64,000 bases of DNA, taken from positions 1 to 64,000 of the forward strand of contig MU057403.1 in the NCBI GenBank assembly GCA_013265495.1, in the 5' to 3' direction. The stretch is from Vicugna vicugna (lineage: Eukaryota). Below, one piece after another: positions 3,676 to 44,330 of this stretch (positions are counted from its first letter, which is position 1; the number at the start of each line of letters is the position of its first letter). A program made the position numbers and the translations under genes. Below the pieces are notes generated by a model, which did no database searches, was not told where the DNA came from, and saw only the letters and a list, made by a program, of their open reading frames with translations.

Positions 3676-4302
3676 NNNNNNNNNNNNNNNNNNNNNNNNN
3701 NNNNNNNNNNNNNNNNNNNNNNNNNNNNNNNNNNNNNNNNNNNNNNNNNNNNNNNNNNNNNNNNNNNNNNNNNNNNNNNNNNNNNNNNNNNNNNNNNNNN
3801 NNNNNNNNNNNNNNNNNNNNNNNNNNNNNNNNNNNNNNNNNNNNNNNNNNNNNNNNNNNNNNNNNNNNNNNNNNNNNNNNNNNNNNNNNNNNNNNNNNNN
3901 NNNNNNNNNNNNNNNNNNNNNNNNNNNNNNNNNNNNNNNNNNNNNNNNNNNNNNNNNNNNNNNNNNNNNNNNNNNNNNNNNNNNNNNNNNNNNNNNNNNN
4001 NNNNNNNNNNNNNNNNNNNNNNNNNNNNNNNNNNNNNNNNNNNNNNNNNNNNNNNNNNNNNNNNNNNNNNNNNNNNNNNNNNNNNNNNNNNNNNNNNNNN
4101 NNNNNNNNNNNNNNNNNNNNNNNNNNNNNNNNNNNNNNNNNNNNNNNNNNNNNNNNNNNNNNNNNNNNNNNNNNNNNNNNNNNNNNNNNNNNNNNNNNNN
4201 NNNNNNNNNNNNNNNNNNNNNNNNNNNNNNNNNNNNNNNNNNNNNNNNNNNNNNNNNNNNNNNNNNNNNNNNNNNNNNNNNNNNNNNNNNNNNNNNNNNN
4301 NN
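3676..4302. other. Assembly gap (627 N)
   Basis: Run of N. Confidence 1.
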
Positions 4303-4900
4303 GATGGGAGAAGACGGGCTCAGCCAGGGAAGCCCCGCGACTGGCCAGTGCCCCCCGCCCCGCCGCCTCCCCGCGACCCGGCGGCGGGGAGCCCGCCCGC
4401 CGAAAGCGAAACCGAGGAAGCGCCACGTCGGAGGCGGGGGTGACATCAGCCCGCCGACGTCCGGCGCCGTCCTTCCGGGGTCAGCGGCGGAGGCGGGGCG
4501 GAGGCGGGCTGGGGACTGGCTGAGGCTCCGGTGGGTAGGTGGGCTCAGCCCGAGGGGACTACGGGTCGGCGTTGGGCTCAGCGGGCTCGAACAAAGGCCT
4601 CTCGGGCAGGGACGCGGCGCGGCGCCTCCTGCGGGTAGCTGGGCGGCCGGCCGCGGCTTCCCGGCCCGCCAGTGCCCTCCCCGCGCGGTCCCCGTCGGCT
4701 TCTCCTCGGATCCCCGCGGCCAGCGCCGCGGTGCGGGGCCCGGCGCAGCGGCACCTGCTGCTGGGGGACCCCGCGGCCCGCCCGGGTGCTCGTGATGGGG
4801 CTGATCTTCGCCAAACTGTGGAGCCTCTTCTGTAACCAAGGTAAGAAGGATGGAGCTGCCCAACGGCTGGCAGCGGAGGGAGTGGGTCTGGCCGCCGAAG
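4303..4900 (+). promoter_or_regulatory. ARL5B: CpG island / promoter and 5' UTR of ARL5B
   Basis: Very GC- and CpG-rich, GC boxes (GGGGCGGAGG), directly upstream of the ARL5B ATG. Confidence 0.85.
4795..4840 (+). CDS. ARL5B: ARL5B coding exon 1 (MGLIFAKLWSLFCNQ); no downstream exons found in the window
   Basis: Peptide matches the recalled ARL5B N-terminus (ARL5A starts MGILFTRIW); 46-nt coding part followed by a canonical AAG|GTAAGA donor. Confidence 0.9.
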
Positions 4901-7544
4901 GGGACAGCTCGGGAGGCAGGGCTCTCTGTGGACACTAGCGTTCTGAGACGCAGAGAAGGGACTTAGTCAAGAGGGTTGGGTAAAAACTCAGTATTTTAGG
5001 CTGGGAGTAGATGCTGGAGAGACGTGATGACGGGGAGAAATGGAGAGGCAGAAAAGGGGCATTTGGTCTCCCAAGAGCCAAACCAAGAATTTGGGGATTT
5101 TAGTGAAGGAAAGCGGAAAGCACCTAATGATACCGGGAGGCACTTGGAGGGCCTTTTCCGTCTCTCGTTAAGCATCCTAAGTGTCCTGCCCGAGGATAAA
5201 TGTCTATCCCCAAATCTATCAACTTTTAAAACTAGTGCTGCTTTGTTTTCTGCCCTGCTCTTTAAGCCCGTGCGCCTTCACGTTCTCTTGTTTCGCCTGC
5301 TCACCAAGGGCTCGGGAATATGTTGTCCTGTAGAGATTCACGGGTTTCCTGGAAATCTTCATTGCAAACTGATTATTCCTCTCTTCAGTGCTGGAAAACT
5401 GAATGCTTTTGGTTCCATGTACTATGTTGCTTGTCCATAACTAGTCTAGAACTGGTTCTGAGACATCTAAAACTTGCAAGACCAAAGGGCCAAGAAGTTG
5501 TAAAACCTGTTCTGAGTCAGAGTGAATCAGATGTGATGCCTTCTGAAGAGAGAAAATTTACCTATACAAAAAGGGCCAGCAATAGGTAAAGTTTTAGGCA
5601 TTCTTTTAACAGAATGTTTTTTCAGGAATTGAAGCCAGTTTAAAAACTCAACTAGTTTCATTTTGCATTTAATGCCAAGGCCTAAAAAAAGGCAGTGTTT
5701 TATGGCCAATTTGTTATTGCTAATATGGTGCGGGGTTTTTTTCCTGGACTTAATAAGTCATGAAGAGAATGAAATGGCTTTAGCTCACTTGTGCCGTAGA
5801 TTGATAAGAATACTAAAATAGCCTTTTTTCAAGGTTAATAAAGATAGATACATACACATATACATTGCTTGCCTTCCTTCCCTGACCACTCTTAACCACC
5901 CCGACACTCACTCTCCCTGTCTTTACCATTTTTCTGAGTAACAGTTATCCCTGTCATCATATAAGCTTGTTTGTTTACTTGTCTTTTTATTTCAATAGAA
6001 ACTCACTTGAGGCATGAACTTTGCCTTACTACCTGTTGTAGCCCCAATACAAAAAACTTTCAATTTTTTGTTTTGTTCAACATAAAAATTTTGTGTCGAA
6101 GTAACACAGACATTCTTTTTAAAAAGTTATGTAATGTTAAAGTCTGAAAATGATGTATATTAGTCAAATCTCTTTAAATGCCTTACCCTTTTTTCCCTAG
6201 TATATACTTTGATATTTCTGGATAATGTGCATATATGGAAATTTTAAACAGTATAATTTGTCTTTTTTAAAAATTGATAAAAATCAACATATAATATTTT
6301 ATTTATTTCAGGTATACTAATTATTTCTTATAGCAGAACATAAAATACTTTGGCCCTTTTCCCTTATCACCCCTATATAGTATTTTGGCTTAATCCACAC
6401 TCTGTCTTTTCATTATTGTCACTGTAAAGTTTAGTTACTGCTGTGCTGCAGTGTTCCCCTTTTTCCTACACCTTAACCTTTTTTCGAGTAACTAATATTT
6501 CATTGCCTTAGTTTTCTTTGTATGTTTGGTTAAGTCATTTCATGCTATACAGAAGCTCTCCTCCAAGTTTGTCCACACACCTCCCTGCCTGGTCAGTGCT
6601 CCATCCTGCTCCAAATTGGACCTGTGCCCCTCTCCGTGCCTGGTGCACAGCTGTTCCGGACATGTCCTTGCTGTCATTCTAGGAATCTTCCTTCCTTTTC
6701 TCTTTTATTAGAACTTATGTTTTTCTTGCTTTACTCTTTGATGAAGCACATGCTTCAGACATTTCCTGCAGAGGTTTCCAAAGTGATCATTTTTCTGTAG
6801 TTTAAAATACTGAAAATATTTTGGTCTGTCTTCACTTTTGATTTATAATTGGGCTAGATACAGAATTCTGAGTTGGGAAAATGTCTCTTTCAGAATTTTG
6901 AAGATGTTGTCATTGTCCTCCAGCTTCTAGTATTGTTGTGAAGACCAGTGTTTTGCGATTTTTTTTCTTAGTCTTTCTAGTAGATTTTAGAATGTTTCAT
7001 TTATCCTTGGTGTTTTTAAATTTGAAAGAGTTGTGCCCTGTTATGTAATTTTTTGATTCATTGTGCTAGGCCTTTTGCACCTTTTTAACACAAAGTTACA
7101 TTTTTTTCCATTCTAGGAATTTTTTTTTTTAATATTTAGGATTTCTACTTTCCTGAGAATCTTGTTGGTCATATGGTACTAAATTGATTATCAGATATTC
7201 TTTTCCATTTTACTTTCACTTTTTTTTTAAAAAAAAGTAAGTTTCTGGGATATTTCCCTTGTCTTCCAAATCTTTTGAATATTTGGTTCAGCTATCTTAT
7301 TTTTAGTTTATAAATGCTTTTTTCTTTTTTCCTGTGTTTTAAAATTCTTGTGGCATTGCTTCATAGTGCTATGTCTTTTAAGTGTCTTAAGTTTTTTTTA
7401 CCCTTCTGTTTCTATTTTTATATTAGCTCTTCACTGGAAACTTTCCTTATAGATCTATTGGAAATAATTCTGGTGCATGAATATACTATGGCTTGTTTCT
7501 TCGTTTGCATCATAATAGGTTGTAGTAAGTGAAACTGTTAGATT

Positions 7545-9480
7545 TTTTTTTTATTGATTCAGTCACTCTGTGTCTTTAGATTGGAGAAGTTAGTCCATTT
7601 ACTTTAAAAAGTAATTATTGATAGGCATGAATTTACTATTGCCATTTTGTAATTGTTTTCTGACTTTTTAAAGTTCTTTTTTCTTTCTTTCTTCTTCTTC
7701 TTCTTCTTCTTCTTCTTCTTCTTCTTCTCCTTCTCCTTCTCCTTCTCCTTCTTTTTTTTTCTTCTTCTTTCCTCCTTCTTCTTCCTTCTTCCTTCTCCTT
7801 CTCCTTCCTTTTCTTTCTTCTTTCTTCTTATTGTATTCCTTTGTGATTTAACAACTTCCTACAATGGTTTGCTTAGATTCCTTTTTTTTTTTTGTCTTTT
7901 GTGTATCTAATACAGGTTTTTGCTTTGTGTTACCATGAAGAAGCTTATATAAAAATGGCTTTTATAAGCCTATTTTAAGCTGATAACAACTTAATTTAGA
8001 ATGCATACTAAAGCCCTACATTTTAAAATGCTCCTCGTTATTTTGATGTCACAATTTATATCTTCATCTTGTTTATCCCTTAGCAAATTTTGCAGTTAGT
8101 TATTCTTAATACTTTTATCTTTCAACCTTCATGCTAGATTTTTATATGATTTATTCATCATGATGACAACTATAAAGGATTCTGAATTTATGTTTACCTT
8201 TACCACTGCAATTTATACCTTCATATGTTTTCCTGTTACTAATTATTAGCCTTTTGTTTTAGCTTAAAGAAGTCTCTAACTTTTTTTGGCTTGGCCAGTT
8301 TAGTGGTCATGAACTTCTTCAGTTTTCCTTGTCTGGAAAACTTTTTCTCTCTCCTTAAATTCTGAAGAGCAACCTGCCTGGGTAGTGTTCTGGCTGATAG
8401 TGTTGTTTTTTGTTTGTTTGTTTGCTTTTCTGTTTGTTTTTTCCTTTCAACACTTGGAATATATAGTGCTATTTTCTTCAGCCTGCAAAGTTTCTTCTGA
8501 AAACTATGCTGATGGTTTTATGGGGGTTCTCTTGTATATAACGAGTTGTTTTTCTTTCACTGCTTTAAAGATTCTTCCCTTGTCTTTAACTTTTGACACG
8601 TTAATTATACTGTGTCTCAGTGTGCGTCTTGTTGAATTCTTCCTTTTTCGAATGTATTGGGCTTCTTGGATCTGTGTGTTTGTTTCTTTCCCCAAGTCAG
8701 GGAAATTTTCAGTTATTATTTTTTCAAACAAACTTTCTGCCTTCCCTCATATTTCTGTGACTCCCATATTGTGAATATGGTCCCCTTGATGTTGTTTAAG
8801 AAATCCCTTAATCTATCTTAATTAATCACACTTTCCATTCTTTTTTCTTTTTTCTCCCTCAGTTGCGTGAATTCCAGTGCCCTGTCTTTGGGTTTGCTGA
8901 TCTGTTTCTTCTGGTTCATCTATACTGCTGTTCAACACCTCAATTAAAAATTTCAGTTCAGTTATTACATTCTTCAGCATCATGTTTTCTGTTTGGTACT
9001 TTCTTATATTTTCTATCCTTTGTTGAAATTTCCACTCTGTTCATGAATTATTCTCATGAGCTCAGTGAGCATCTTTGTGACAATTAATTTTGGACTGTTC
9101 ATCAGATAAGTCACTTATTTCCATTTCTTAAGGTCTGTTTCTTGAGTTCTGTCTTTCACTTTTGTTTGAAACACATGACTCTATTTCTTCATCTTCCTTG
9201 ACTCTGTGTGTTTTCTGTGCATTAGATAAAGCAGTCACCACTCCCAGTCTTCCGAGAGTGGTCTCCTGCAGGAGATAAGCCTGTCACTCAGACCTGCCCT
9301 AGGTCTGCGTTTTTTCCCTAACCTTTGTGACTGCCCAAGTGCCTTCTTTATTCTTAATGGCTCCCCATAGTTGAATGTGTGCCAAGACTTTTCGGTGTCC
9401 AGAAGTGGGAGGATCTTAGCATCTAGATGCAGGCTGGTTGGAAGCTGATCCTTGTTTAGCAGCTTTTAAAATATGCAACC
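7545..9480 (-). mobile_element. Degraded L1: 5' UTR part, ORF1, inter-ORF region and ORF2 start
   Basis: Minus-strand ORF 8504-8731 'FEKIITENFPDLGKETNTQIQEAQ' is L1 ORF1p-like. Confidence 0.85.
7688..7830. repeat. (TTC)n/(TCC)n simple repeat inside L1
   Basis: Directly visible. Confidence 0.95.
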
Positions 9481-15242: not shown

Positions 15243-16345
15243 TTTTTTTTTTTTTTTTAATTGCAGCATAGTTGATTTACAATGTTAGTTTAGGTGATTC
15301 AGTTATACATATACATACATACATTTTTTTTTCTTTTCAGATTCTTTTCCATTATATGTTATTATGAGAAATTGAATATAGTGCCCTGTGCTCTACAGTA
15401 GGTCCTTGTTTATCTATTTTATATTTAGTACTGTGTATCTGTTAATCTCCAACTCCTAATTTATCCCTCACCACCCTTTCCCCTTTGGTAATATGGTTTG
15501 TTTTCTATGCCTGTGAGTTTTGTGTTTGGTTTGTAAATAGAATTTGTATCATTTTTTTAAGACCCCACATATAAGTGATAACATATGATATTTAGCCTTC
15601 TCTGACTAACTTCACTCAATATGATAATCTCTAGGTCCATCCATGTTGCTGCAAATTACATTCTTTCACCCTTTTTTATGGCTCATATTTCATATGTATC
15701 CCATATATACCACATCTTTTTTATCCAATCATCTGATGATGGACATTTAGGTTGTTTCCATGTCTTGACTGTTACCAGTACCGCTGCTGTGAACATTGGG
15801 GTGTGTGTGTCTTTCCAAATTAGAGTTTTCTCCAGATGTAAGCCTAGGAGTGGGATTGCTGGGTCATATGGTAACTCTATTTTTAGTTTTTTAAGGAACC
15901 TCCATACTGTCCTTCATAGTGGCTGCACCAATTTACATTCCCACCAACAGTGTAAGAGGGTTCCTTTTTCTCCACAACAGTTATCATTTGTAGACTTTTT
16001 TATGATGGCCATTCTGACTGGTGTGATACCTCATTGTAGTTTTGATTAACTGTTACCAGTACCGCTGCTGTGAACATTGGGGTGTGTGTGTCTTTCCAAA
16101 TTAGAGTTTTCTCCAGATGTAAGCCTAGGAGTGGGATTGCTGGGTCATATGGTAACTCTATTTTTAGTTTTTTAAGGAACCTCCATACTGTCCTTCATAG
16201 TGGCTGCACCAATTTACATTCCCACCAACAGTGTAAGAGGGTTCCTTTTTCTCCACAACAGTTATCATTTGTAGACTTTTTTATGATGGCCATTCTGACT
16301 GGTGTGATACCTCATTGTAGTTTTGATTTGCATTTCTCTAATAAT
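15243..16345 (-). mobile_element. L1 3' end with an internal 281-bp tandem duplication
   Basis: Poly-T tail at 15243, typical antisense L1 3' UTR and ORF2 C-terminal sequence. Confidence 0.9.
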
Positions 16346-26240: not shown

Positions 26241-28830
26241 ATTAGGGAATAAAAGACTGAAAGAACAAACGAAGTGGTAAATTTTAGAGGAGGTAGGAGA
26301 ACTTAAAACCCAAGATTTCAAAGCGGATGATGTACGTGTAAGTGACACATAGGATGTAGAGACACAAAGGGCACCTGAAGAGTGTGGGAAATGGATGCAG
26401 ACTTCTGAGTCCACTTCTAAGGTGGGAGCTGGGGAGGAGTGGGGCTACCACGGGTAGGGAGGCAGTGGAAATAAGAAAGAAGCTGGGATCATTCATCTCC
26501 GCCATCGCTAACTGGATATGCAAACTGGAAACAACAGGGTGGGGTAATCCTGAGAGAACGCTGGGAATAGTGTCAGAAACAGGGAAGGGAAACACTCCCA
26601 GGAAATGCCCCGCTTCTCTTGAATTACGCACCTCGGAGCTCTTGGATTTATCTAAACTGTCAAGGGAAGTGACTTGACTGGTTTCTCATAGGCGCTGTGG
26701 TGAGATTCACTGCAGTTCGAGTCCAGAATCATCAATGCAACGGAGGAGCGAGGAGCTGGTCAAGACCTTCCAGCTGTGGATGCAGTGAAGGCAGAGAAGG
26801 GAATGGCTCCGGATCAGAGAGGGGCACTAAACAGAGCCCCCTGCAGACTCCTGCTCATTGCCTGTTGCCATCCCCACAGCAAGGACCACCTGAGCATCAT
26901 TTATAGGCTCAGCCCTATCTCAGCCTCAGGAGCTTGTTAGGAGGTAGCTAGAGAAAAATAGCCCAAAACCTATTGAGCAAATTATCCAGCCCTACCGTCA
27001 CCTGCTACCTTTAAGAACCTCAGCTTTGCCTTATTTCTGGCATTAAGCTCTTGCTTCCTGGCTGCCTCCAATTAGCAGGTCCCCATATCTGCCCTCCCCG
27101 CCTGAGTGCCACTGTTTAACCTTCCGGGTTGCAGCAGGATGGGATCTTGATTCGCTGTGATTAGTGGTCCCAGGATAGTGCCCCCTGCTGGGACTTTGGG
27201 ACCTTTTTCCTGATTCCCCGAAGTCCAGCTTGGAAGTTCCTTATTTCCCCTCTCCGATTCCCTGTGGCTAGAGACTGAGTCCCTCCAAATAGGGCCCAGT
27301 GAGGTATCAGGTATTGCCTGCAGGAATTCTCAAACACCATGGCTAGTCTCAGCTGTTCTCAGTACTTCCCAGCCACAGCCACAAAGGCTCCTAAGTCAAC
27401 TTCCCCCTGGGTCTCAGCCTGTTCCATTTGCCTCCAAGGCTTGCTCTACCCTCACATTCATACCTAAGTCAGCCACCAGCGGGGTTCCTATTCCTGTCCC
27501 AGGGTGAGACAGCCACAAGGAGGGGCAAGGAAAAGCCATGGAGGCAGCCTCGAAGGCAGGCAGAGCTGGCAGGCAGATTCCAAGGATGAAGAAGGACTAA
27601 TAAGGGAACAAAGCACTTGGCTGAACATGGAGGTGCCACTTCCCTCCCCTGATCTGGGTCACAGCTGTCACTCTTCATGCCCAGCCCGCCTGCTTCCTCA
27701 AGGAGCCTGAAATCAACCTTCCTTAAACATGGTTATGTTTGAAATCCAAACCAACCTCCGGGGGAATGAGTTTCATATGGTAACTAACCCGCAGTACAAA
27801 GAAGGAGCTTATTTACCCTTGATTGATATTTACAAGAATTTAACCTGCATTTGGGACCATTCTCATCTGATGCAGTATCTCCCGACATATTTATGCTAAC
27901 ACAAGAAGATGTAGTCCACTCCATGGGAGGGAGGGAAGCAGGGACTGATTAAATCAGTCCTTCCTCCAGCTTCCATTCTTGGCCTTTTGGTGCGGCCTGA
28001 GTTTGAAATTTCTACCCCGTGTCAGTATAATGTAATTACAGTGTATTTACTCTGCCTTGACCTAGAAAGAATTTAAAGGGGCCCACCAGGTAACATGAAA
28101 TACAAGATGACAGCAGCTTAAGATGAGACTGAAACAAGCCGCCATGTATAGTTTTGCATGTTGGGCACTGTGCAACTCTAGACAGCATCACTTGCTTCTA
28201 TAATCATAACAGATTTATGTATTTATTACAACACTTTTCCAGCAATTATTCTGAGAAAAGAAGGCTCTGGGCGTGTGGTAGGACAGCATGTGTTCCTCTT
28301 CCTCGGTGTCCAGCCTACCCTTTGTGGGGCCATCTCTAGTAATAAAATGAAGTCCTACAACTCTGAGCTGACTCTGAGCTGTCTCTGAGCATAGCTTCTC
28401 CCCATGTCCTGCCTTTATGCTGTCTTTTTCTCTCTTTCTGAAGACTCTAACCCCTCTAAATAATAATTATAATAATGTTTATTACATTTTTTAATGCCAA
28501 GGCACTGTGTGAAGCAGCCTCTCCTATATTTTCGCATGCAATTTCAGCTGAATGTAAGGAACTTCTTGCTGCATATTTCAGGGTCGCACAGCTAGTCGGT
28601 GCCACCAGAAATCCAGGCTTGTGCACGTCAAGTTGGTGCTTCTACTGCCAAACAATCTTCTGTTGCGACGCGATCCCATGTTTTATTTGTGAGTCCAAGC
28701 TTCTTTTTAACAATGAAACATTGGGTTACACAAAGGAGTCAGCAAGAGTTCATCATAAAGAAGAAAATCAGCTATGTTTTGATTTTTGCCTTCTCCCCAA
28801 AGCCCCTTCAACTCAGAAGTTCCCAGAAAA

Positions 28831-29290
28831 GGGGGGAAGGTATAGCTCAGTGGTAGAGTGCATGCCTAGAATGCATGAGGTCCTGGGTTCGATCCCCAAT
28901 AACTCCATCAAAAATAAATAAGTAAACCTAAATACCTCCCCCCACAAACAAACAAACAAACAAACAAACAAAACCACACAAAGACAAATGAACTTAAATA
29001 TAAACTGAAACAGACTCACAGACATAGAATACAAACTTGGGGTTGTGGTTGTTGGTGGGGGAGGGTGGGAAGGGACAGACTGGGAGTTCAAGATTTGTAG
29101 ATACTGACAGGTATATATAGAATAGATAAACAAGTTTATACTGTATAGCATGGGGAAATATATATGGTGAAAGAGAATATGAAAATGAATATATGTATAT
29201 TCATGTATGACTGAAAAATTGTGCTGTACACCAGAAATTGACACATTGTAAACTGACTATAACTCAATTATAAACAAATAAATAAATAAA
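28831..29290 (+). mobile_element. Vic-1-like SINE head fused to an L1 3' UTR, within one TSD pair
   Basis: A box TAGCTCAGTGG and B box GGTTCGATCCC, then L1 3' UTR to a (TAAA)n tail; TTCCCAGAAAA on both sides. Confidence 0.85.
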
Positions 29291-32903: not shown

Positions 32904-34899
32904 CTGTTTTTAATCTTCAGTAAAGTTGATGCTCTTTTTTTATTCTCCATCAAAGGGGGAGCCTAATAATTTAGGAAAACCCTGAACCTATGGATTTGAG
33001 CTCTGATCTCACTCCCGCTCCCTGCCCCCACCCCTCTCCTTTTCTCCTCCTCTCTGTCCTCCTTTCCCTTCCTCTTCCCTCCCTTTCCTTCCCTCTCTGT
33101 CTCTCTCCACCCCCCACTCCCAGTAGATTTACTTAATTTCTTGGCTCACCAGCTGGATTCACATGTGAACAGATGTTTTGATCAATGACTTTGTCTAAGT
33201 GTTAAAAGTCACCAGTAGCAGGTTAAACCCAGCAGGCTAATAAAAAGCGTCCCCAAGCGCAAAGCGAAGGTGACAGTGTCCTTGATTTTTCTGCTTGTTT
33301 GTTATTACATTGTTTTCAGGTAGCTTTGTCTCTTGCAGCTGCAGGCTCTATTTTTCTTGATGTTTAAATGGAAAGGATTTCCTGCACCCACATTCAATCC
33401 CAGGTTTTAAGCCTTCAAATCCAATTACTTCCTGATTGGATTTGCATGCTTCTTCCTCAATCAGTAAATGAGCTGTTTCTTCTATGGGGCAAGTCCTTTG
33501 CTGAAAGTGACCTTTGTTGAAAGTGACCCTTCAGTTTTCTGTCCTTTCCCTGGGCATGCGTATCAAGGCTGAGTCTGCAGTAAAAGGCTTGTTTCAACCA
33601 TCTGTGGACACAAAGCCACTCCATGTTCCATGGACATCATGGGGCCATGACATGAGGTCCTGGCTGAGGCCGGCCCTGGCCAGTGCGTCCCAAGGCTGCA
33701 GTCTCCACAGGGGAGCCAGTGGGCACTCTTGAAGCATGAAAGACCCAGTTCAGGGCAGAGAAGAAGGAAGAGCGGATTTCTAGTCAGCAGTTAATAAATT
33801 CATGATGCCCACACCGTCTGGAAATATTAACCTGTATGTGGAGAGTCAGAGGTAGCAGACCTGTGGTGGGCCATCAGGGGTGCCTTCTGGTAGTTTTATT
33901 AAGATGCTCCATTAGAAATGATCCTAAAAGCATCAAATGCCAGACAGCGAACCATTCATCTGAGCGCCTTACAAGGGACACCTGCTCACCTGGGCAATCC
34001 CTCGTGTGTGGGACTGAAACCCTGTGTCACAGGATACTTAGCTTCCCAGTCTCCTCTGCCTTAAAGGCCAGAGCCCTCTCCCCACTCGTGGTGTCAAAGA
34101 TAACCCCACACATTCCCATAAACCCTCTATGATTCTCACTTTGGGGATAAGAAACCTAGGTTGAGAAAATTGAAGGCTTTTCTGAGAATGATAGCTTGAT
34201 GGTTTGAGCCCCATCTGATGCTCTTTCTATTAGTGTAAGGTGAGTCTGTGCAGCACGAGGGGCCCTGAGCTGGGTGGGGTGGGGGGCGTGAGAGCCCTGC
34301 ACTCGTCTCCTCCCACGGGTGGTGGTAGAAGGTTGCCTGCGTGCGCTCTCCCACCCTCACCTACAAACAACTACCTTTCTCTGGGTTTCAGCTGATGCCC
34401 TAGCCTCTTCAAAGCGGCCTTGAAATGCTGAGGTTCCTTGTATCAAACCACAGACTGGAGCATGGGGTTCGTTACTCTTGCTTATTTCATGGTTGGAGAA
34501 GTGGCCGAAATGTCCACAAAACACGCAGGGGACGTCAGCCTCAGCCCCTAATTTGAAAATACTTCAGGAAATGGTTAGATGAGCCCCAACAGACATTTTA
34601 CCTCAAATCAACTTCATTAGAGATTCTCTGGCAGGGCAAACCGTTGATAGGAGAGGGAAGATCAGAGCATGCAGAGCACATTGTGCATGATTTACAATAA
34701 AACCAGAGGTTTGGGACAATTTTTAATGAATCACTTTAAACCAAAGTCAATAGATAAAGAGTAGAGATCAAGGCTGATTTTTCACCTTTTAAACATGGGG
34801 GGGAAAATAAAAAATTAACATTCATCACAGGTCACACCAGGGCCAGTGATTTAGCACAACTTTCCCAAACTCTAATGGCTCAAGAAGGCAAAAGTCATG

Positions 34900-35520
34900 A
34901 GCAAACATGTGTAGAAAGCTTGAAATATCAGCTCTAGATAGGATTCAACACCTAACAAAGAGAAGACACACTCTTTTCAAGGAAGTGTGGAATCTATAAA
35001 AACTGACAATGTACCTCAATGAGTTCTACGGAAGCATCATTATATGTATATAATCATGCATATTAATGATGTATAGTATATTCTATTATTATATAAAAAA
35101 TTAGAAATCAATATTAAATATTTTTACAAATCCCATGTATCTGGAAACCAAAGAACATACTAATAAATATGCTTAGATTAAAAAGAAGGATGAAAGAGAG
35201 ATTACAAAATACTTAGCAGAGGACTAACAATGACACTGCATATCAAAACCTGGCAGCTTCAGGCCCAGACCGTTTCATAGGTAAGTTCTTCAGATTTTTG
35301 AGAAATAAATAATATGTTTCCATAATCTGACCCTAATCGCATATTAAGAAAAAATTATAACTAATTAAGCTTTATCTCAGGAAGGCAATAATGGCTCAAT
35401 GTCAAAAAATAATTTGTCAATGTAGTTTTTAACATCTCTAGAATAAAGGAGAACAACATTATCATTATCTTGATTTCTGCAGAAAACACTCAATAAAATC
35501 CAATACCTATACTTTAGTGA
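34900..35520 (+). mobile_element. Degraded L1 ORF2 fragments
   Basis: A-rich, L1-like motifs 'aaattagaaatcaat', 'catatcaaaacctgg', 'ctcaataaaatccaatacc'. Confidence 0.5.
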
Positions 35521-35524
35521 GCCT

Positions 35525-38500
35525 TCAGGACCACTGACCCAGGCCCAGGGAGTGCCCTGAGTGCCAGTCACCGAGGCCCAGGGTGAGTATCAGGGCCAGT
35601 GAACCAGACCCAGTGTTGCCATCAGTGCCTTGACCCAGGCCCAGGGTGTGCTTCAGCACCAATAACCCAGGACCATAGTGTGACCTCTGCACCAGTGACC
35701 CCAGATCAGGGTGTGGCTTGAAGGCCAATGACTAATGCCAAGTGTGTGACTTTACGGCCAAGGACCTAGGATACGTGTGTGCCTTCAGAGCCAGAGACCA
35801 AGGCCAAGGGTGTGCCTTTAGGGACAGTGAACCACGTCCAGGGTGTGCCTTCAACACCACTCACCCAGGTGGATGGTGTGTCTTCAAGGCCAGTGAACAA
35901 GGCCAATGTTGTGACTCTAGGGTAGTAACCCAGGCAAAGGTTGTGCCTTCAGGAACAGTGACCCAGGCCCGTGTCTGTCTTCAGTGTCTGTAACCCAGGA
36001 CCAGGGTGTGCTTTGACGGCTGCTGACCCAGGTCAAACATGTGCCTGCTGCGAGAGAGACCCAAGTTATGGGTGTGCTTTCTATGCCAGTGACCAAGCCC
36101 AAGGGTGGCAGTTTACAGATAGACACAGAGGCCCAGGGAGTGACTTCAGAGGCAGTGGTGCAGAGTATACATTTTGCGTAATTTAAACAGGCAAAGGGTG
36201 TCGATTTGGTGCCAGTGACCCAGGCCCAGGGTGTGCCTATGTACCAGTGACCTAGGTCCAGGGTGTGTCTTCAGGGCAAGTGCTCAAGCTAATGTTGTGA
36301 CTTCAGGGCCAGTGACCAAAGACCAGTGTGTGCCTTCAGGAACAGTGACCTAGGCCCGTGTCTGTCTTCGGTGCCAGGAACCAAGGAATAGGCTGTGCCT
36401 TCAGCACCATTGAACCAAGCCAAGGTTATACACTCAGGGTCAGTGACCCAGGCCCAGTGTGTGCTTTTAGGGCCAGTCACTCAGTCCCAGTGTGTGTTTA
36501 AAGGCCATTGACCCAAGCCCATGGGTGACCTTCAGACAACATACCCAGGCCCAGGGTGTGTCTTCAGGGCCATTGACCAAGGCCAACAGTGTGTCTTCAG
36601 CGTCAGTGACCCAGGTCAAGGGGGTACCTTCATGACCAGGGGACCAGGACGGGGGTATGCCCTCAGCCTCAGTGACACAAACACAGCGTGCTACTTCTAT
36701 GCCAGTGACCCAGGCCAAGTGTGTGTTCAGGGCCACTGACCCAAGCCAAGTGTGTGTCTTCAGGGCCACTGACCCAGTCCAAGTGTATGCGTGCAGCACC
36801 AGTGAAACAGTCCTTCGGTGTTCCTAGATTCTAGGAAAATGACTGTGGCCCTGGGACTGCTTTCATGTCAAGCTACACAGTCCCAGGGTGTGCCTTTAAG
36901 GGCAGTGACCCAGGTCCCCAGGATCTTCTCAAGGCCAGTGACCCAGGCCCAGGAGATGGCTTCTGCACCAGTGACCAAGGCCCAGGCTGTGTTTTTGTGG
37001 CCAGTGACCCAAGCCAAGAGTGTGTTTCTAGGGCCACTGACCAAAGCCAAGAATGCATCATCACGGCCACTGACCCAGGCCCAGGGTGTGTATCAGGGCC
37101 GGTGACCCAGGCCAAGAGTGCATCTTCACGGCCTGTGACCCAGGCCCAGGGGATGTCTTCTAAGACAGTGACCCAGGCCCAAGCGGTGTTTTTGGGACCA
37201 GTGACCCAAGCCATGTGTGTGTCTCTAGGGCCACTGACCAAATCCAAGTGTGCGTCTGTAGGGACAGTGACCAAGACCAAGAGTGAGTCTTCACGGCCAG
37301 TGACACAGGCCCAGGGTGTATATTAGAGCCAGTATACCGGGCCCGGGATATGCCCTCAGCTCCAGTGACATAAGCACAGCATGCTACTTCTGTGCCAGTC
37401 ACCCAGGCCAAGTGTCTTTTCAGGTCCACAGACCCAAGCCAAGTGTGTGCCTTCAGGGCCAGTGACCCAGTCGAAGTGTGTTTCTTCATGGTCACTGACC
37501 CAGGCCAAGGATATGCATGCAGTACCAGTGACACAGTCGCTCAGTATCCTAGATACTAGGAAAGTGACTGAGGCCCTGGGACTGCTATCATGTCAAGTTA
37601 TACTGTCCCAGGGAGGGTGTGCCTTCAGTGGCAGTGACCCAGGCCCCCAGGGTCTTCTCAAGGCCAGTGACCTAGGCCCTGGATATTGCTTCTGCGCCAG
37701 TGACCCAGGCCCAGGCTATTTTCCAGGCCAGTGACCCAACCCAGGAGTGTGTCTCTAGGGCCACTCACCAAAGCCAAGTGTGTGTCTTTAGGGCCAGTGA
37801 CCAAGGCCAAAAGGTCGTCTTCACAGCCAGTGACCCAGGCCCAGGGTGTGTGTCAGGGCCAGTGACCCAGGCCAAGAGTGCGTCTTCACAGCCAGAAACC
37901 CAGGCCCAGATTTGCAATTGGTGCCAGGGACCCAGGCCCGGTGTATGCCCTCATCCTCAGTGACACAAACACAGCGTGCTACTTCTATGCCAGTGACCCA
38001 GGCCAAGTGTGTGTTCAGGGCCACTGACCCAAGCCAAGTGTGTGTCTTCAGGGCCACTGACCCAAGCCAAGTGTGTGTCTTCAGGGCCACTGACCCAGTC
38101 TAAGTGTGTTTCTTCAGGGTCATTGACCCAGTCCAAGGGTATGCATGCAGCACCACTGAAACAGTCTGTCAGTGTTCCTAGATTCTAGGGAAGTGACTGA
38201 GGCCCTGGGACTGCTTTCAGGTCAAGTTACACAGTCCCAAGGGCAGTGACCCAGGTTCCCGGGATCTTCTCAATGCCAGTGACCCAGGCCCAGGGTGTGT
38301 TTTCAGGGCCAGTGACCCAAGCCAAGAGTGTGTTTCTAGGGCCACTGACCAAAGTGAAGTGTGAGTCTTTAAGGCCAGTGACCCAGGCCCCCTGGTTCTT
38401 CTCAAGGGTAGTGACCCAGGCCAAGGGGTTGGCTTCTGCTACAGTGACCCAGGCCCAGGCTGTGTTTTCGGGTCCCATGACCCAAGCCAAGAATGCATCT

Positions 38501-38745
38501 GTAGGGACACTGACCAAAGCCAAGTGTGTTTCTTTAGGGCCAGTTACTCAGGCCCATGGGTTCTTCTCAAGGCTAGTGACCCAGGCGCAGGCTGTATATT
38601 CGGGGCCAGTGACCGAAGCCAGGATTTTCTCTCTAGAGCCACTGATCCAAGCCAAGTGTGTGTCTTTAGGGCCGGTGATTATGGCCAAAAGTGCATCTTA
38701 ACGGCCAGTAACCCGGACCCAGTGTTGCCATCAGCGCCAGTGAAC
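35525..38745 (+). repeat. Satellite, ~33-bp unit CCAGTGACCCAGGCCCAGGGTGTGTCTTCAGGG (left arm)
   Basis: Many degenerate tandem units; recurring 11-aa PVTQAQ/ASDPGPG peptides in the ORF track. Confidence 0.95.
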
Positions 38746-39855
38746 CTCGCTACTCCCTCACCGCGTGGTCACACAACCTTAAAGTCGGGCATTGGGGTGT
38801 CCCAGCGCCAGGAGGACCTTAGGTGGCACCTGGGCGGGAGCTGGAAGGACAGCACTGGCTCGAGACCGACGTAGGAGGCCGGCAAGTAGCGCTAGAAAGC
38901 AGACACGACCATAGGACAAGCCGGGCCCCTGGCCATCCAGGCCCGGAGAGCGGATAAGTTTCTCACCAACTTCCCGACTCGGAGCCGGCGTTGGCTGGTG
39001 GGGGCGGCGCGTCCGGGCGCCGGGGCCTAGCGCTGCGGGACCGAGGCCGGGGCCGGCCGCTTCTGCCCTCGGGTTGCGTGGAGGGGGCTGCGAGCGGAGG
39101 CGAGGCCCGCGGGCCCTCTCCCTCCTCCACCTCCTATCCCCGGGCTCCCGGCCGCAAAAACGGCTGCACAGGCGGCCGCACACTAGCTTCTTCACCGGGA
39201 ATCAACTTCCAGGCTCTGCTCCTTCGCGAGGCGGGGCGCCGCGAGACTTCCGGTTTGCGGGTGGGCCGCTCGCGCGAGAGCAGGGCAAACCGGAAGTCGC
39301 GCGCGTGCCCCGCCCGCAAAGCGGAAATCCCGCGCGCGACCCGCTTGCAAACCGAAAGTGACGCGGCGCCCCGCCTGGCGAAGGAGCAGAACCGGGAAGT
39401 TCACTCCCGGTGAAGAAGCTAGTGCGCGGCTTCCTGTGCAGCCGTCTTTGCGGCCGGGAGCCCGGGGCTAGGAGGTGGAGGAGGGAGAGGGCCCGCGGGC
39501 CTCGCCTCCTCCCGCCGCCCCCTCCACGCAACCCGAGGGCAGAAGCGGCCGGCCTCGCAGCGCTAGGCGCGGCCGCCTGGACGCGCCCCCTCCCCCCCCC
39601 GCCACGCCGGCTCGGAGTCGGGAAGTTGGAGAGAAAATTTTCCTCTCTCCAGACCTGGCTTGCCAGGGACGAGTCTCGCTTGATGGTCTTGTCTGCTTTC
39701 TGGCGCTTCCTGTTGGCTGCCTGCGTCGTTCTCCGCACTATGCAGGCTTTCCATCCTACCGAGGTGCCAACTAAGGTCCTCCTCGCGCTGGGACACCCCG
39801 ACCAGCGACTTTAAGGTCGGGGGACAATCTGGTGAGCGGGCGGAGAGGTTCACTG
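38745..39855. promoter_or_regulatory. Inverted-duplicated CpG island, candidate bidirectional promoter
   Basis: High CpG density; the two halves are diverged reverse complements; ETS (CCGGAAGT) and GC-box motifs. Confidence 0.7.
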
Positions 39856-42794
39856 GCGCTGAAGGCAACCTTGGGTCTGGGACACTGGCCGTGGAGAGGC
39901 ACTCTTGGCCATGGTCACTGGCCCTAAAGACACACACTTGGCTTTGGTCTGTGGCCATAGAGAAACATTCCTGGCTTGTGTCACTGGCCCCGAAAACACA
40001 GCCTGGGCCTGGGCCTGGGTCACTGGCGCAGAAGCCATCCACAGGGCTTGAGCCACTGGCCTTGAGAAGACCCCGGGGGCCTGGGTCACTGGCCGTGAAG
40101 ACGCACTGTTAGCCTGGGTCACTGGCCCTAAAGACACACACCTGGCTTTGGTCAGTGGCCCTACGCATACACTCTAAGCTTAGGTCACTGGCCCCGAAAA
40201 CACAGCCTAGGCAGAAGCCATCCCATGGGCCTGGGACTCTGTCCCTGAAGGTACAACCTGGGACTGTGTAACGACATGAAAGCATTCCCAGGGCCTTGGT
40301 CACTTTCTAAGAATCTAGGAACAACAAGGGACTGTGAGACTGGTGCTGCACACATACCATTGGCCTCGGTCAGTGACCCTGAAGAAACACACACAGACTG
40401 GGTCGCTTGGCCTGAAGACACACACTTGGCTTGGGTCGTTGGCCCTGAACACACACTTGGCCTGGGTCACTGGCACTGATTGCAACCCTGGGCCTGGGTT
40501 ACTGGCCATGAAGACGCACTCTTTCCCTGGGTCACTGTCCGTGAAGGCGCACTTTAGCCTGGGTCAGTGGCCCTGATACATACTCTGGGCCTAGGTCACT
40601 GGCCATGAAGACGCACACTTAACTTGGGTCATTGGCCCTGAACACACACTTGGCCTGGGTCAGTGGCACAGAAGTAACATGCTGTATTTGTGTTACAGGG
40701 GCTGAGGGCATACCTGGAGCCTGGGTCACTGACACTGATTGCAAGTCTGGGCCTGTGTCACTGGCCATGAAGACGCACTCTTTGCCTGGGTCACTGTCCG
40801 TGAAGGTGCACTTTAGCCTGGGTCAGTGGCCCTGATACATACCCTGGTCCTGGGTCACTGGCCTTATACACACCCTGGGCCTGGGTCACTGGCCGTGAGA
40901 TGCACTCTTGGCCTGGGTCAGTGGCCCTAAACACACACTTGGCCTGGGTCTCTGGCACCAAAGAGACCTCCTGCGTCGGTCTCGAGCCAGTGCTGTCCTT
41001 CCACACGCTCTGCTTGTGTCACTCGGTTGAGGGCATACCCCGGGCCAGGGTCACTGGCACTGATTGCAAGCCTGGGCTTGGGACGCTGGCCATTAAGGGC
41101 ACTCTTGGTCTGGGTCACCGGCCTGATACATACCCTGTGCCTGGGCCACTGGCACTGATTTCAACCCTGGGCCTGGGTCACTGGCCATGAAGTCGCACTC
41201 TTGGCCTGGGTCAGTGGCCCTAAACACACATGGCCTTGGTCATTGGCATAGAAGGAACATGCTCTGCTTGTGTCACTGGGGCTGAGGGCATACCCTGGGC
41301 CAGGGTCACTGGCACTGATTGCAACCCTCGGCTTGGGACGCTGGCCGTTAAGGGCACTCTTGGTCTGGGTCACCGGCCTGATACATACCCTGTGCCTAGG
41401 TCACCTGCCGTGAATATGCACTCTTGGCCTGGGTCAGTGGCCCTAAACACACACTTGGCTTGGGTCTCTGGCACAAAATGAACACACTCTGCTTGTGTCA
41501 CTGGGTTGAGGGCATACCCAGGGCTTGGGTCATTGGCACTGATTGGAACCTTGGACCTGAGTCACTGACCATGAAGCAGCACTCTTGGCCTGTGTCACTG
41601 GCCGTGATACACATAGGGGCTGCCTCACTGGCAGTGAAGACGCACTTTTGGCCTTGGTCACTGGCCGTAAATAGGCAATTTCGCCTGGGACAGTCGCCCT
41701 GATACACACCCTGGGCCTGTATCACTGGCACTGATTGCCCCCTGGGCCTGGGTCACTGGCCATGAAGACGCACTCTTGGTCTGAGTCACTGGCCTTGATA
41801 CATATACTGGGCCTGGGTCACTGGCCCTGAAGACACACACTTGGCTTGGGTCAGTGTCCCTGAACACACACTTGGCCTGGGTCACTGGCACAACATTGTA
41901 AACTGACTGTATATATATGTATATATATGTGTATATATATATATACATATATATACATACACACACACACATACAGAAAAAGTATTGCATCTATGAACAC
42001 TAACAGATTGTGTTACAGTGGTTGAGGGCATACCCCGGGCCACGGTCACTGGCACTGATTGCAAGTCTGGGCCTGGGTCACTGGCCGTGAAGACTCACAC
42101 TTGGCCTGGGTCACTGGCCCTGATACACACACTGGGCCTGGGTCACTGGCCGTGAAGATGCACTCTTGGCCTGGGTCAGTGGCCCTAAACACACACTTGG
42201 CCTGGGTCACTGGCACAGAAGGTGCACGCTCTGCTTGTGTCACTGGGGCTGAGGGCATACCCCCGGACAGGGTCACTGGCGCTGATTGGAAACCTGGGTC
42301 TGGGATGCTGGCCTAGAAGAGCACTCTTGGTCTGGGTCACAGGCCCTGATACACACCCTGGGCCTGGGCCACTGGCACTGATTGCAACCTTAGGCCTGGG
42401 TCACTGGCCATGAAGTCGCACTCTTGGCCTGGGTCAGTGGCCCTAAGCACACACTTGGCCTAGGTGATTGGCACAGAAGGAACATGCTCTGCTTGTGTCA
42501 TGGGGGCTGAGGGCATACCCCGGGACAGGGCCACTGGCACTGATTGCATCCCTAGGCCTGGGTCACTGGCTGTGAAGACGTACTGTTGTCCTGGGTCACT
42601 GGCCCTGATACACACCCTGGGCCTGGTTCACTGGCCGTGAAGACGCACTCTTGGCCTGGGTCACTGGCCCTGATACACACATGGGCTGCGTCACTGGCCG
42701 TGAAGACGGACTGTTGGCCTTGGTCACTGGCCGTAAATAGGCACTTTGGCCTGGGAAAGTCGCCCTGATACACACCCTGGGCCTGGGTCACTGG
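39855..42794 (-). repeat. Same ~33-bp satellite in reverse orientation (right arm)
   Basis: Units read ...GGCCTGGGTCACTGG, the reverse complement of the left arm. Confidence 0.95.
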
Positions 42795-42856
42795 CACAAC
42801 ATTGTAAACTGACTGTATATATATATATATATATATACATACACACACACATACAG
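42795..42856 (+). mobile_element. L1 terminal sequence plus (TA)n(CA)n tail, right part of the split L1
   Basis: 'cacaacattgtaaactgact' matches the L1 terminus at ~29242-29258; followed by the TSD. Confidence 0.75.
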
Positions 42857-42871
42857 AAAAAGTATTGCATC

Positions 42872-44330
42872 TATGAACACTAACAGGATAATGTAAAAGA
42901 GAACATTCTGAAAACAAAACAGAGCTCTTCAGTATTAGGAATGAGGAGCAGCAGTAAGTTTACATTAGTAGGGTTAGTGGAGAAGTCTTCTAGACAGACA
43001 AAAACAATTGAGAGAGATGGAAATAAAGGGAAAAATACTAAAATGATCAATTAGAGGTCCGATATTCAAATAACAGTTTCAGACAGAGCGGAGAAAACTA
43101 AGGAGATGAAACTAAATAACACAAAAATATTCCCCAGAATTGAAGGACATAAGTTTTCGGGTTCAAAGTGCCACTAAATGCTACCAGTTTAAAATCACTG
43201 AGCACTGGAAATCAAGAAAAGATCTAAGTAATTTCCAGGGGGAAAGAACAGATCATATATAAAAGATGAAGAATTGGAATGGCAATGGGCTACTTGAAAG
43301 CAACTCTGGATAACAAAAGATTGTGGAAAATTTTCTTCAAAATTCTTAAGGAGGCCAATTCCTAAGAATAGATATCTCTGAGGAGAGAAAAAAAAGTGAG
43401 TCTAAGAAATGATCTTATGCATTCGAATTAAGATGAATTAATCATTGACTAAAATGAGATTTATACTTGTGGAGGGGCAGAGGGGTGTAGGAATAAAATT
43501 AGTGACAGATCCTTTAAAAATAAAGCAAATAAAAAGAGAGAAAAAAACTTAATGGAAAGTAAAAGCAAAAGTAGTATAAGGAAGAAAATGCCGCAGAAGT
43601 TTACTAAATGGCTCCTAGTAACGATCTAATAACACTATTATTGATTTAAACCCCAAATAGTGATATAAGTATATTGTGAGGGTGGAGGTAAAGGAGATCT
43701 TGAAGGCAGTGGTTGTTTAAAAAAAAGAAAGAAAGAAAGAAAGAGAGAAAGAGAGAGAACCAAACTAAATAGAATGCTTCTGGTTATATATTGTAGAGAA
43801 ATTGTTGCATATATTTCTCAAGGAAGCATATATACTTAAAGGCTATTCAGAACAGTGTTAACTGTTAGCATGAAAATTTAGAACCTTCCAATTGGCCATC
43901 AATAGAGCACCTGTTAAATAAATTACAGTATATCCTTTCAGTTAGACTGTTATACAGTCAGTACATCAATAAAGCCATTTTATATGTACTGATAAGAAAT
44001 AGTCTCTAGAAATAAGTCAAAAAATTAAGATCAATTTCTGCATTTATATAAAAAGAAAAGGGAAAGTATAGCTTGCTTTCTCTCTGTCTCATGTTTTTAT
44101 ACACACACACACACACACACACACACGTATATATGTGCTTACAGCGTATACACACTACTGTTAGAAGTTTTCTTATATATTCTTCCAGTAAAAGCCTATG
44201 CATATATAAATAAATGTGTGTATGTTTCTATCCGCATATATGTATGTATACTTATTTGTATTTGTATAGCTTATCTCTGAAAGAGTACACAAGAAACCTC
44301 TAATAGTAATTGAGAATGACTGGGGGCCAA
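42872..44330 (+). mobile_element. Ancient L1 (L1ME-like) ORF1 to 3' remnants
   Basis: ORF1-like 'aaaatattccccagaattgaaggacataagttttc...gaattggaatggcaatgggctacttgaaagcaactctgga'. Confidence 0.65.

Follow-up and report, generated by a model that had tools for sequence, protein, structure and literature searches.

Head-to-head duplication of a CpG island and its adjoining minisatellite in Vicugna vicugna: a possible bidirectional promoter

Opposed minisatellite arrays

The locus lies within a stretch of 64,000 nucleotides of contig MU057403.1, analysed as a whole and called the window here, and comprises two arrays of 33-bp units that face in opposite directions around a GC-rich core of 1.1 kb. 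In the left array (35517-38745, plus strand), TRF placed the 33-bp unit at 35517-38144 (80.2 copies, 63% matches) and again at 38275-38678; in the right array (39855-42795, minus strand), the reverse complement of a unit of the same family was found at 39900-40194 and 40360-42795 (75.6 copies, period 32-33). A 15-nt unit motif, counted with at most two substitutions on both strands of the whole 64 kb, occurs 50 times in the forward sense, always in the left array (35531-38606), and 55 times reversed, always in the right array (39874-42780), with no wrong-strand copies in either array and none outside them. An earlier note on this DNA, which had the satellite running forward at 35525-38745 and reversed at 39855-42794, is borne out by these counts (50/0 and 0/55). 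Neighbouring units are spaced by 33 nt in 50 of 80 intervals on the left and by 33 or 32 nt in 48 of 74 on the right, and the consensus of the 46 left-array units of exactly 33 nt, CCAGTGACCCAGGCCAAGGGTGTGTCTTCAGGG, is nearly equal to that of 26 such units from the right. Being head-to-tail tandem units within the range of about 10-100 bp, in about 80 and 76 copies, the arrays are minisatellites. A coding tandem repeat with an 11-aa unit was considered and rejected: the longest open reading frames of the arrays reach just 166-181 aa with no long open frame, and the 166-aa frame matched nothing at E<=0.001 among proteins of 91-291 aa. The information content by third position (0.89/1.26/1.16) contains no coding-type dip, with the caveat of an anchoring bias in these values.

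Both arrays stop abruptly in AT-rich sequence at their outer ends, 35517 and 42795. Such boundaries would suit a dispersed, lineage-specific composite repeat or mobile element that is already catalogued, present here as one copy or as two head-to-head copies, and so would the combination of a CpG-rich end with an internal VNTR, an arrangement known from some composite retroelements. This origin appears quite improbable, since neither the core nor the satellite motif recurs in the 56.7 kb of the window outside the locus, poly(A) is absent at both outer boundaries, and the flanks beyond them have no mutual similarity in either orientation (best E 0.14). In addition, four satellite strings of 17-18 nt were unmatched in 8.4 million full texts, and pattern scans gave unrelated matches only in collections of metagenomes and of prokaryote genomes, both poor sources of mammalian DNA. 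SVA, a composite retroelement in which a GC-rich VNTR of 30-50-bp units lies beside a CpG-rich segment, resembles the locus in that juxtaposition; however, an SVA-like element has a single orientation and a 3' poly(A), whereas the arms here are inverted, lack boundary poly(A) and have no other copy in the window.

The mirror-duplicated core

Between the arrays, the left half of the non-satellite core (38746-39277, with the minus strand as the sense of any outward transcript) and the right half (39328-39854, plus strand) are inverted copies of each other. By blastn, 38580-39277 aligns with 40013-39328 on the minus strand at 81.6% identity over 705 nt (E 1.66e-161), which agrees with the inverted duplication proposed earlier for the core, and the mirrored 20-mers quoted in its support were found in place at 39181-39200 and 39405-39424. 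A repeat search recovered the inner part as arms of 230 nt (39048-39277 and 39328-39557) that are 90% complementary across a spacer of 50 nt. With reverse-complementary arms far above chance and a short spacer, the core is a palindrome, or inverted duplication, in the usual sense. A 31-bp unit repeated 3.0 times at 39285-39375 (plus strand, TRF), with ETS-like and GC-box motifs inside, has one inverted copy in the left half; the right half is therefore longer by about two units, which displaces the axis.

The description of the locus as an imperfect palindrome of about 7.3 kb stands in part: the arms do oppose each other around the core, but mirror register stops at about 37850 and 40800, and the collinear palindrome is confined to the inner ~2.9 kb. 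In chunk-wise blast, the best inverted matches of five successive 200-nt chunks had coordinate sums of 78461-78656, against 78593-78605 for the core, which puts the left-array part at 37850-38745 (plus strand) in register with about 39855-40800. Farther out, the arrays keep the same family and orientation out of register. Structurally, the head-to-head duplication proposed earlier is confirmed, for a unit of half of the island and at least ~900 bp of adjoining satellite. Two local features stand out in the right array. A copy of the array/flank junction at 41866-42007 (plus strand) matches the true outer junction (42771-42886) almost exactly, microsatellite length aside, and the satellite preceding it is diverged. 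In addition, a 37-nt patch at 40967-41003 (minus strand) is 97% identical to the reverse complement of 38842-38878 in the left core, and is far nearer to that segment than is the right core's own mirror copy.

The two core halves differ by 127 substitutions and few indels (82.2% identity over 713 aligned columns; Jukes-Cantor distance 0.20). As substitutions dominate and identity is this low, the duplication event is old. The 61 transitions and 66 transversions give a ratio of about 0.9, which is odd for neutral mammalian divergence and may represent alignment noise or biased conversion. The same divergence bears on the possibility of an assembly artefact, whether through a chimeric fold-back or through an inverted contig joined in error. 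The assembly does have flaws: a 627-N scaffold gap at 3676-4302 and a 281-bp tandem duplication, 100% identical, at 15768-16328. However, fold-back artefacts produce near-identical arms, and because those observed here are 17.8% different, mainly by substitutions, with two extra 31-bp units on the right, a fresh fold-back is ruled out, in agreement with the earlier note. Moreover, 184 words sampled from 38400-40200 were present at shares of 0.53-0.69 in six DNA runs (three study codes, three organism codes), figures that record the presence of words and not their arrangement; as the axis lies in the middle of this stretch and more than half of the words occur, words from both halves are probably represented. 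An assembly artefact is considered extremely unlikely.

CpG retention and motifs at the axis

Identity between the halves depends on distance from the axis. The inner block at 39052-39201 is identical to its mirror at ~39404-39553 in 141 of 150 positions (94%), identity falls sharply beside a 12-nt indel, and farther out it is 73%; in the outer core (38601-39000 and 39401-39800) the arms are 70-80% identical. A gene-conversion tract between the arms would explain the inner block as well as constraint would.

The CpG island at 38601-39900 (1300 bp, GC 0.67, CpG observed/expected 0.87, 127 CpGs) is among three stretches of the window that pass the island thresholds (length >200 bp, GC >=0.55, observed/expected >=0.6), the window as a whole having a ratio of 0.28. 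Of the 60 CpGs in the left half of the core and the 58 in the right, 37 occur in both at mirrored positions, and for 39052-39251 the share is 20 of 23, so that the CpG retention claimed earlier is upheld. Even the poorly conserved outer core keeps a ratio of 0.64-0.88, whereas the adjacent arrays have fallen to 0.0-0.38 (0.0-0.26 in the left one) at a GC content of 0.53-0.62. The kept CpGs of the island beside the CpG-depleted arms fit long-term germline hypomethylation of the island.

The ETS/GABP-type site CCGGAAGT was identified by motif scan at 39246-39253 (minus strand) and, 44 nt away, at 39290-39297 (plus strand). These two sites are the only ones in the whole 64 kb and both lie on the axis in opposite orientation; their number is not significant, two or more being found in 13 of 100 shuffles, and the placement alone is notable. 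Five GC boxes (GGGCGG) and no TATA box were found in 38500-40100. At the level of sequence, the region therefore contains the consensus GABP/ETS sites expected in the shared region of a GABP-type bidirectional promoter.

The same features might instead belong to an orphan palindromic CpG-rich island without stable promoter function, in which recurrent GC-biased gene conversion between the arms, or hairpin-mediated repair, maintains CpG and GC near the axis and the ETS and GC-box motifs are incidental. The identity peak near the axis with its abrupt fall at the indel is the pattern of a conversion tract, and the centre, as single-stranded DNA, forms an almost perfect hairpin of -301.6 kcal/mol (shuffles: -142.8 +/- 5.3; z = -29.8). 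The transfer of the 37-nt core patch into the right array shows templated repair at the locus, and the number of ETS sites, as noted, is unremarkable. However, recent conversion does not explain CpG retention in the outer core, because arm identity there is 70-80% only, and conversion by itself provides no shield against the methylation-driven CpG decay that is evident in the adjacent arrays. This account is thus regarded as unlikely.

A candidate bidirectional promoter and comparable systems

The explanation preferred here is that a CpG-island promoter and the adjoining VNTR underwent inverted duplication long ago, and that the product is now probably a bidirectional promoter. Its structural part, a head-to-head duplication with a palindromic island and opposed arrays, is held with high confidence, whereas for the whole statement, promoter function included, we consider the chances evenly balanced. 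From the anatomy, divergence, CpG pattern and motif positions described above, we infer the following order of events. A module made of half of a CpG-island promoter and the start of the adjacent 33-bp VNTR would have been duplicated head-to-head. The product would be a palindromic island on whose axis lie GC boxes and a pair of ETS/GABP-type sites facing opposite ways, and the outer arrays may later have been rearranged or expanded separately via segmental duplications of 0.6-1.3 kb. The island would serve as a TATA-less bidirectional Pol II promoter, unmethylated in the germline, and its predicted output is a pair of non-coding transcripts, paralogous rather than complementary to each other, each passing outward through a conserved leader of ~150-200 nt into the satellite.

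Any such transcripts are probably non-coding, because the locus contains no open reading frame above 202 aa and the ATGs of the two core halves are not in mirrored positions. The splice-donor-like site CTGGTGAGC at 39832, on the right side, is the sole one scoring at least 7/9 in the first 1200 nt outward on both sides, and in the outward sense AATAAA and ATTAAA are absent until the AT-rich flanks are reached (34727 on the left side, 43022 on the right). No coding genes for the promoter to serve were detected in the window by a Pfam search of the 125 open reading frames of at least 75 aa outside the locus, the sole match above the curated cut-off being an L1 fragment.

A different use of the palindrome would be as a source of hairpin RNA, where a transcript from outside crosses the entire palindrome and forms long imperfect double-stranded RNA that yields small RNAs; in a variant, the axis would be a bidirectional germline promoter of piRNA precursors. 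The centre does fold back strongly, and mammalian piRNA loci are transcribed uni- or bidirectionally according to the relevant part of a review (PMC9114089). Nevertheless, a CpG-island promoter on the axis would send transcripts apart and none across it, no upstream promoter was identified, the arms are just 82% complementary overall, and matches of the core to Rfam miRNA models lie far under the gathering scores (best 44.1 bits against 168). The same part of the review describes pachytene piRNA cluster promoters as low in CpG and heavily methylated (PMC9114089), a class to which an island with a CpG ratio of 0.87 does not belong. Overall, we rate this possibility as very unlikely.

Mammalian palindromic or inverted segmental duplications span tens of kb to Mb, usually have arms more than 95% identical and contain protein-coding genes. 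One example, on mouse chromosome 12, was reportedly described in 2026 (PMC13688818). The present locus is similar in its inverted arms, short spacer, putative shared central control region and potential for gene conversion from arm to arm, but its collinear extent is just ~2.9 kb (the arrays bring the total to 7.3 kb), its arms are 82% identical, and it seems not to code for protein.

Among mammalian promoters, the closest counterparts appear to be the GABP/ETS-type bidirectional CpG-island promoters (Collins et al. 2007, PMC2077898). The locus resembles them as a TATA-less island with consensus CCGGAAGT sites and GC boxes, and its expected output would be divergent transcription with start sites less than 1 kb apart. 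Ordinary bidirectional promoters, however, are unique sequence between two unrelated genes, whereas this one would consist of paralogous mirror halves, with no flanking genes found in the 64 kb and each side entering a minisatellite directly.

In layout, the locus can also be compared with Ds-TR of the mouse X chromosome, a minisatellite array close to Dxz4, termed 'downstream inverted tandem repeat', that likewise inverts midway ('diverging arrows'). The pertinent passages of two papers (Horakova et al. 2012, PMC3491370; Deng et al. 2015, PMC4539712) describe it as having a hypomethylated promoter-like region and expression by RT-PCR, as absent from human and rat, and as interrupted by L1. 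Ds-TR consists of some 30 kb of gamma-satellite-type sequence, and its promoter and Ctcf site are placed immediately distal to the array (PMC3491370), whereas the island here is itself the inversion axis. None of the eight matches to a CTCF consensus in the window (at most two mismatches) falls within 35517-42795, and a Ds-TR-like arrangement with a Ctcf-bound promoter distal to the array was rejected on both grounds. A more far-reaching form of the preferred reading, in which the locus is a selected, lineage-specific bidirectional promoter, is conceivable and in our view quite improbable. Its halves would be kept alike (94% in the inner block) because both drive paralogous satellite-repeat non-coding RNAs. 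It would then be a smaller-scale analogue, autosomal or X-linked, of lncRNA and architectural loci built on tandem repeats, such as mouse Ds-TR, in which the palindrome itself is the regulatory unit and occasional read-through produces hairpin RNA.

At present the locus is a well-defined structural curiosity, real and tidy and of an ordinary kind. The preserved island and the CpG-decayed arms, alike in GC, document within the locus itself the long-term boundaries of germline methylation. If the island is active, it would be a clean natural case of a bidirectional promoter made from one promoter half duplicated head-to-head, allowing transcriptional symmetry to be linked directly to that of the sequence, the motifs and the repeats downstream.

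Opposed arrays and the extent of the palindrome

The feature described in the earlier note, a 7.3-kb imperfect palindrome in which opposed satellites enclose a mirror-duplicated CpG island, is real and was accurately observed, and structurally the locus (35517-42795) is an old inverted duplication, which gave rise to a CpG island in palindromic form with an oppositely oriented minisatellite array on either side. Tandem Repeats Finder (TRF) placed the 33-bp unit in forward orientation at 35517-38144 (80.2 copies, 63% matches) and 38275-38678, and its reverse complement at 39900-40194 and 40360-42795 (75.6 copies). A 15-nt motif of the unit, scored on both strands of the whole 64 kb with at most two substitutions, gave 50 forward matches, every one within 35531-38606, and 55 reversed matches, every one within 39874-42780, with no wrong-strand match in either arm and none outside the arrays. 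The unit consensus is almost equal between the arms (from 46 left and 26 right units of exactly 33 bp).

The 1.1-kb core between the arrays is itself an inverted duplication, as had been proposed: by blastn, 38580-39277 matches the minus strand of 40013-39328 over 705 nt with 81.6% identity (E 1.66e-161), a repeat search recovers an inner inverted pair, 39048-39277 and 39328-39557, with 90% complementarity and a 50-nt spacer, and both 20-mers originally cited occur at precisely the positions reported. Symmetry at the axis is slightly imperfect: TRF places three copies of a 31-bp unit on the right (39285-39375), and the alignment shows one inverted copy on the left. The mirror register is not visible in an ungapped anti-diagonal score because of indels; it was tracked by taking the left side in 200-nt chunks, blasting each against the region and following the best inverted match. 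Five successive chunks past the core hold the anti-diagonal of the core (coordinate sums of 78461-78656 vs 78593-78605), so that the in-register mirror spans roughly 37850 to 40800, with a narrow margin over the out-of-register match in two of the five. In the outer arrays the best inverted matches lose the register, and each arm matches itself in direct orientation equally well or better. The 7.3-kb palindrome is therefore truly palindromic in its inner part (~37850-40800) and not in the outer arrays.

In a MAFFT alignment the two halves are identical at 586 of 713 columns (82.2%), differing by 61 transitions and 66 transversions (Jukes-Cantor distance 0.20), in keeping with the earlier description of them as clearly diverged. 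Identity varies from 141/150 (94%) in the inner block at 39052-39201 to 146/200 (73%) at 38754-38953; the first satellite units (38604-38753) are intermediate at 124/150 (83%). At mammalian neutral rates this distance would imply that the halves evolved independently for tens of millions of years, provided that no conversion occurred. An assembly artefact is very improbable because the halves show 18% substitution divergence. Six DNA sequencing runs, with three study codes and three organism codes among them, contain 0.53-0.69 of 184 words sampled from 38400-40200, shares that bear on presence and say nothing about arrangement; as the axis lies midway in this interval, they imply that words of both diverged halves occur in independent data.

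CpG retention and a candidate bidirectional promoter

Three stretches of the window satisfy island thresholds, among them the CpG island at 38601-39900 (GC 0.67, o/e 0.87, 127 CpGs). The arrays are comparable in GC content (0.53-0.62), yet their CpG o/e is only 0.0-0.38, and of the 60 left-half and 58 right-half CpGs of the core 37 are mirrored, including 20 of 23 in 39052-39251; the CpGs had indeed been kept, as first noted. Since the weakly conserved outer core also has a CpG o/e of 0.64-0.88, this retention does not come merely from recent homogenisation. Given the established behaviour of CpG decay, it suggests that the island has long been shielded from methylation in the germline. If the island is a promoter, the 94% identical inner block would represent a core promoter and 5' leader under constraint. 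A gene-conversion tract accounts for that block equally well, and a functionless island kept by conversion is an unlikely reading that nevertheless ranks first among the alternatives.

The motif content is compatible with a promoter of the TATA-less type. The only two CCGGAAGT sites (ETS/GABP type) in the window, at 39246 (-) and 39290 (+), face opposite ways across the axis, although their number is not significant (at least two in 13 of 100 shuffles). The interval 38500-40100 contains five GGGCGG boxes and lacks a TATA box, AATAAA and ATTAAA; going outward, the first poly(A) hexamer comes at 34727 on the left side and at 43022 on the right side, and a single splice-donor-like site with a score of 7/9 or more occurs in the first 1200 nt (right side, 39832). 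None of the window's eight matches to the CTCF consensus CCASYAGRKGGCRSY (at most two mismatches) falls at the locus; the sole perfect match in the window is at 27177-27191 (-). The likeliest present function, at about even odds, is that of a bidirectional, TATA-less promoter of GABP/Sp1 type; the suggestion of a promoter with divergent transcripts is reasonable and unproven.

Any product of the locus would appear to be non-coding, as no ORF there exceeds 202 aa, ATG positions are unmirrored between the halves, a 166-aa satellite ORF has no match at E<=0.001 among proteins of 91-291 aa, and the satellite unit lacks the information dip at each third position that is a signature of coding repeats. 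As the arms are mirror copies, the two predicted outward transcripts would be paralogues of ~82% identity rather than complements. Four runs recorded as RNA and two guessed to be RNA contain just 0.07-0.11 of the sampled words and give no evidence of expression or tissue; two of the six are labelled 'reproductive system metagenome'.

The palindrome could also act as a hairpin or small-RNA source. If single-stranded, the centre (39040-39565) is predicted to fold as a near-perfect hairpin, at -301.6 kcal/mol vs -142.8 +/- 5.3 for shuffles (z = -29.8). The six Rfam matches in the core at E<=1 (five miRNA-hairpin models and one lncRNA region) are all far below gathering, as expected of any palindrome, and such a source is improbable overall. 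Against its piRNA variant, a review (PMC9114089) describes the promoters of pachytene piRNAs as methylated and poor in CpG, unlike this locus with its CpG o/e of 0.87.

Proposed history, relatives and surroundings

The best-supported history has three steps. A CpG-island promoter would first have adjoined a 33-bp VNTR; an inverted duplication would then have copied ~1.45 kb (half of the island and ~0.9 kb of array) head-to-head; and the arrays would have been remodelled separately by segmental duplication, followed by patch repair and junction duplication. Direct duplications within the arms (offset by ~600-1350 nt in the left arm and ~260-1800 nt in the right) have 73-82% identity, resembling the divergence between arms. 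A 37-nt patch in the right array (40967-41003) matches left-core 38842-38878, reverse-complemented, at 97% identity, far more closely than the right core's own mirror copy does, and the array/flank junction is present twice (~41866-42007 and 42771-42886), in copies virtually identical save for microsatellite length and preceded by diverged satellite. The patch and the doubled junction show later local rearrangement.

The sequences outside 35517 and 42795 have no mutual similarity in either orientation (best E 0.14). Both flanks look like decayed L1 coding sequence, but that identity is not claimed here: Pfam gave nothing meaningful on 30 short flank ORFs or, apart from one sub-threshold match, on stop-read-through translations, and blastn and tblastn against the rest of the window gave no match. 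In the left flank, about 660 bp outside the array, 34830-34857 has a 12-nt run in common with the satellite unit, which may be fortuitous or may represent a repeat seed.

Membership in an uncatalogued or unrecognised composite repeat family is a doubtful explanation, less credible than conversion and slightly more so than a hairpin source. In collections poor for mammalian DNA, a two-unit satellite pattern matched four bacterial genome contigs by chance and three unrelated metagenome loci. One of the latter is a 33-bp tandem repeat at a contig end (L001 1584-1679; 2.9 copies, 98% matches), probably unrelated as only a 12-mer is common with the satellite and the remaining unit differs; the others (L002, L003) are 15-bp repeats. 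Four satellite strings had no match in full-text literature.

Otherwise the window has the look of mammalian-type DNA of an ordinary, repeat-rich kind. Pfam found no exon with a protein domain among the 125 ORFs taken from outside the locus, and the only match above the curated cut-off was L1 Transposase_22, an L1 ORF1 fragment (8507-8746). The sole Rfam match at gathering threshold, tRNA-like and full length (28836-28907 (+), 52.2 bits), is probably the head of a tRNA-derived SINE and not a tRNA gene. A 281-bp unit in exactly 2.0 copies with 100% identity (15768-16328, TRF score 1122), in sequence that resembles the final part of L1 ORF2, reflects a tandem duplication of very recent date or else an error of assembly. 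The window's other large CpG island (4251-5050, GC 0.71, o/e 0.88) adjoins a 627-N gap (3676-4302), lies about 3 kb from a second tandem array (151-1257; 19-bp unit, 60.8 copies, 65% matches) and does not meaningfully resemble the core of the palindrome (best E 1.9).

Comparison with mouse Ds-TR and significance

Among the literature matches listed, titles and abstract openings described no arrangement of inverted duplication, CpG island, palindrome and minisatellite like this one. The closest described arrangement found is mouse Ds-TR near Dxz4, which two reports (PMC3491370; PMC4539712) present as a ~30-kb minisatellite that inverts midway, with an adjacent hypomethylated, Ctcf-bound promoter and expression reported by RT-PCR. 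Mouse Ds-TR is larger, its promoter is distal to the array whereas the vicuña island is at the inversion point, and that promoter is Ctcf-bound whereas the vicuña locus has no CTCF-consensus match; the two were compared by layout rather than sequence, and the apparent likeness is one of layout and not of membership. The structure falls within known kinds, namely inverted duplication, bidirectional CpG-island promoter and minisatellite, and it would be of more than modest interest only if data on expression or conservation revealed functional symmetry.
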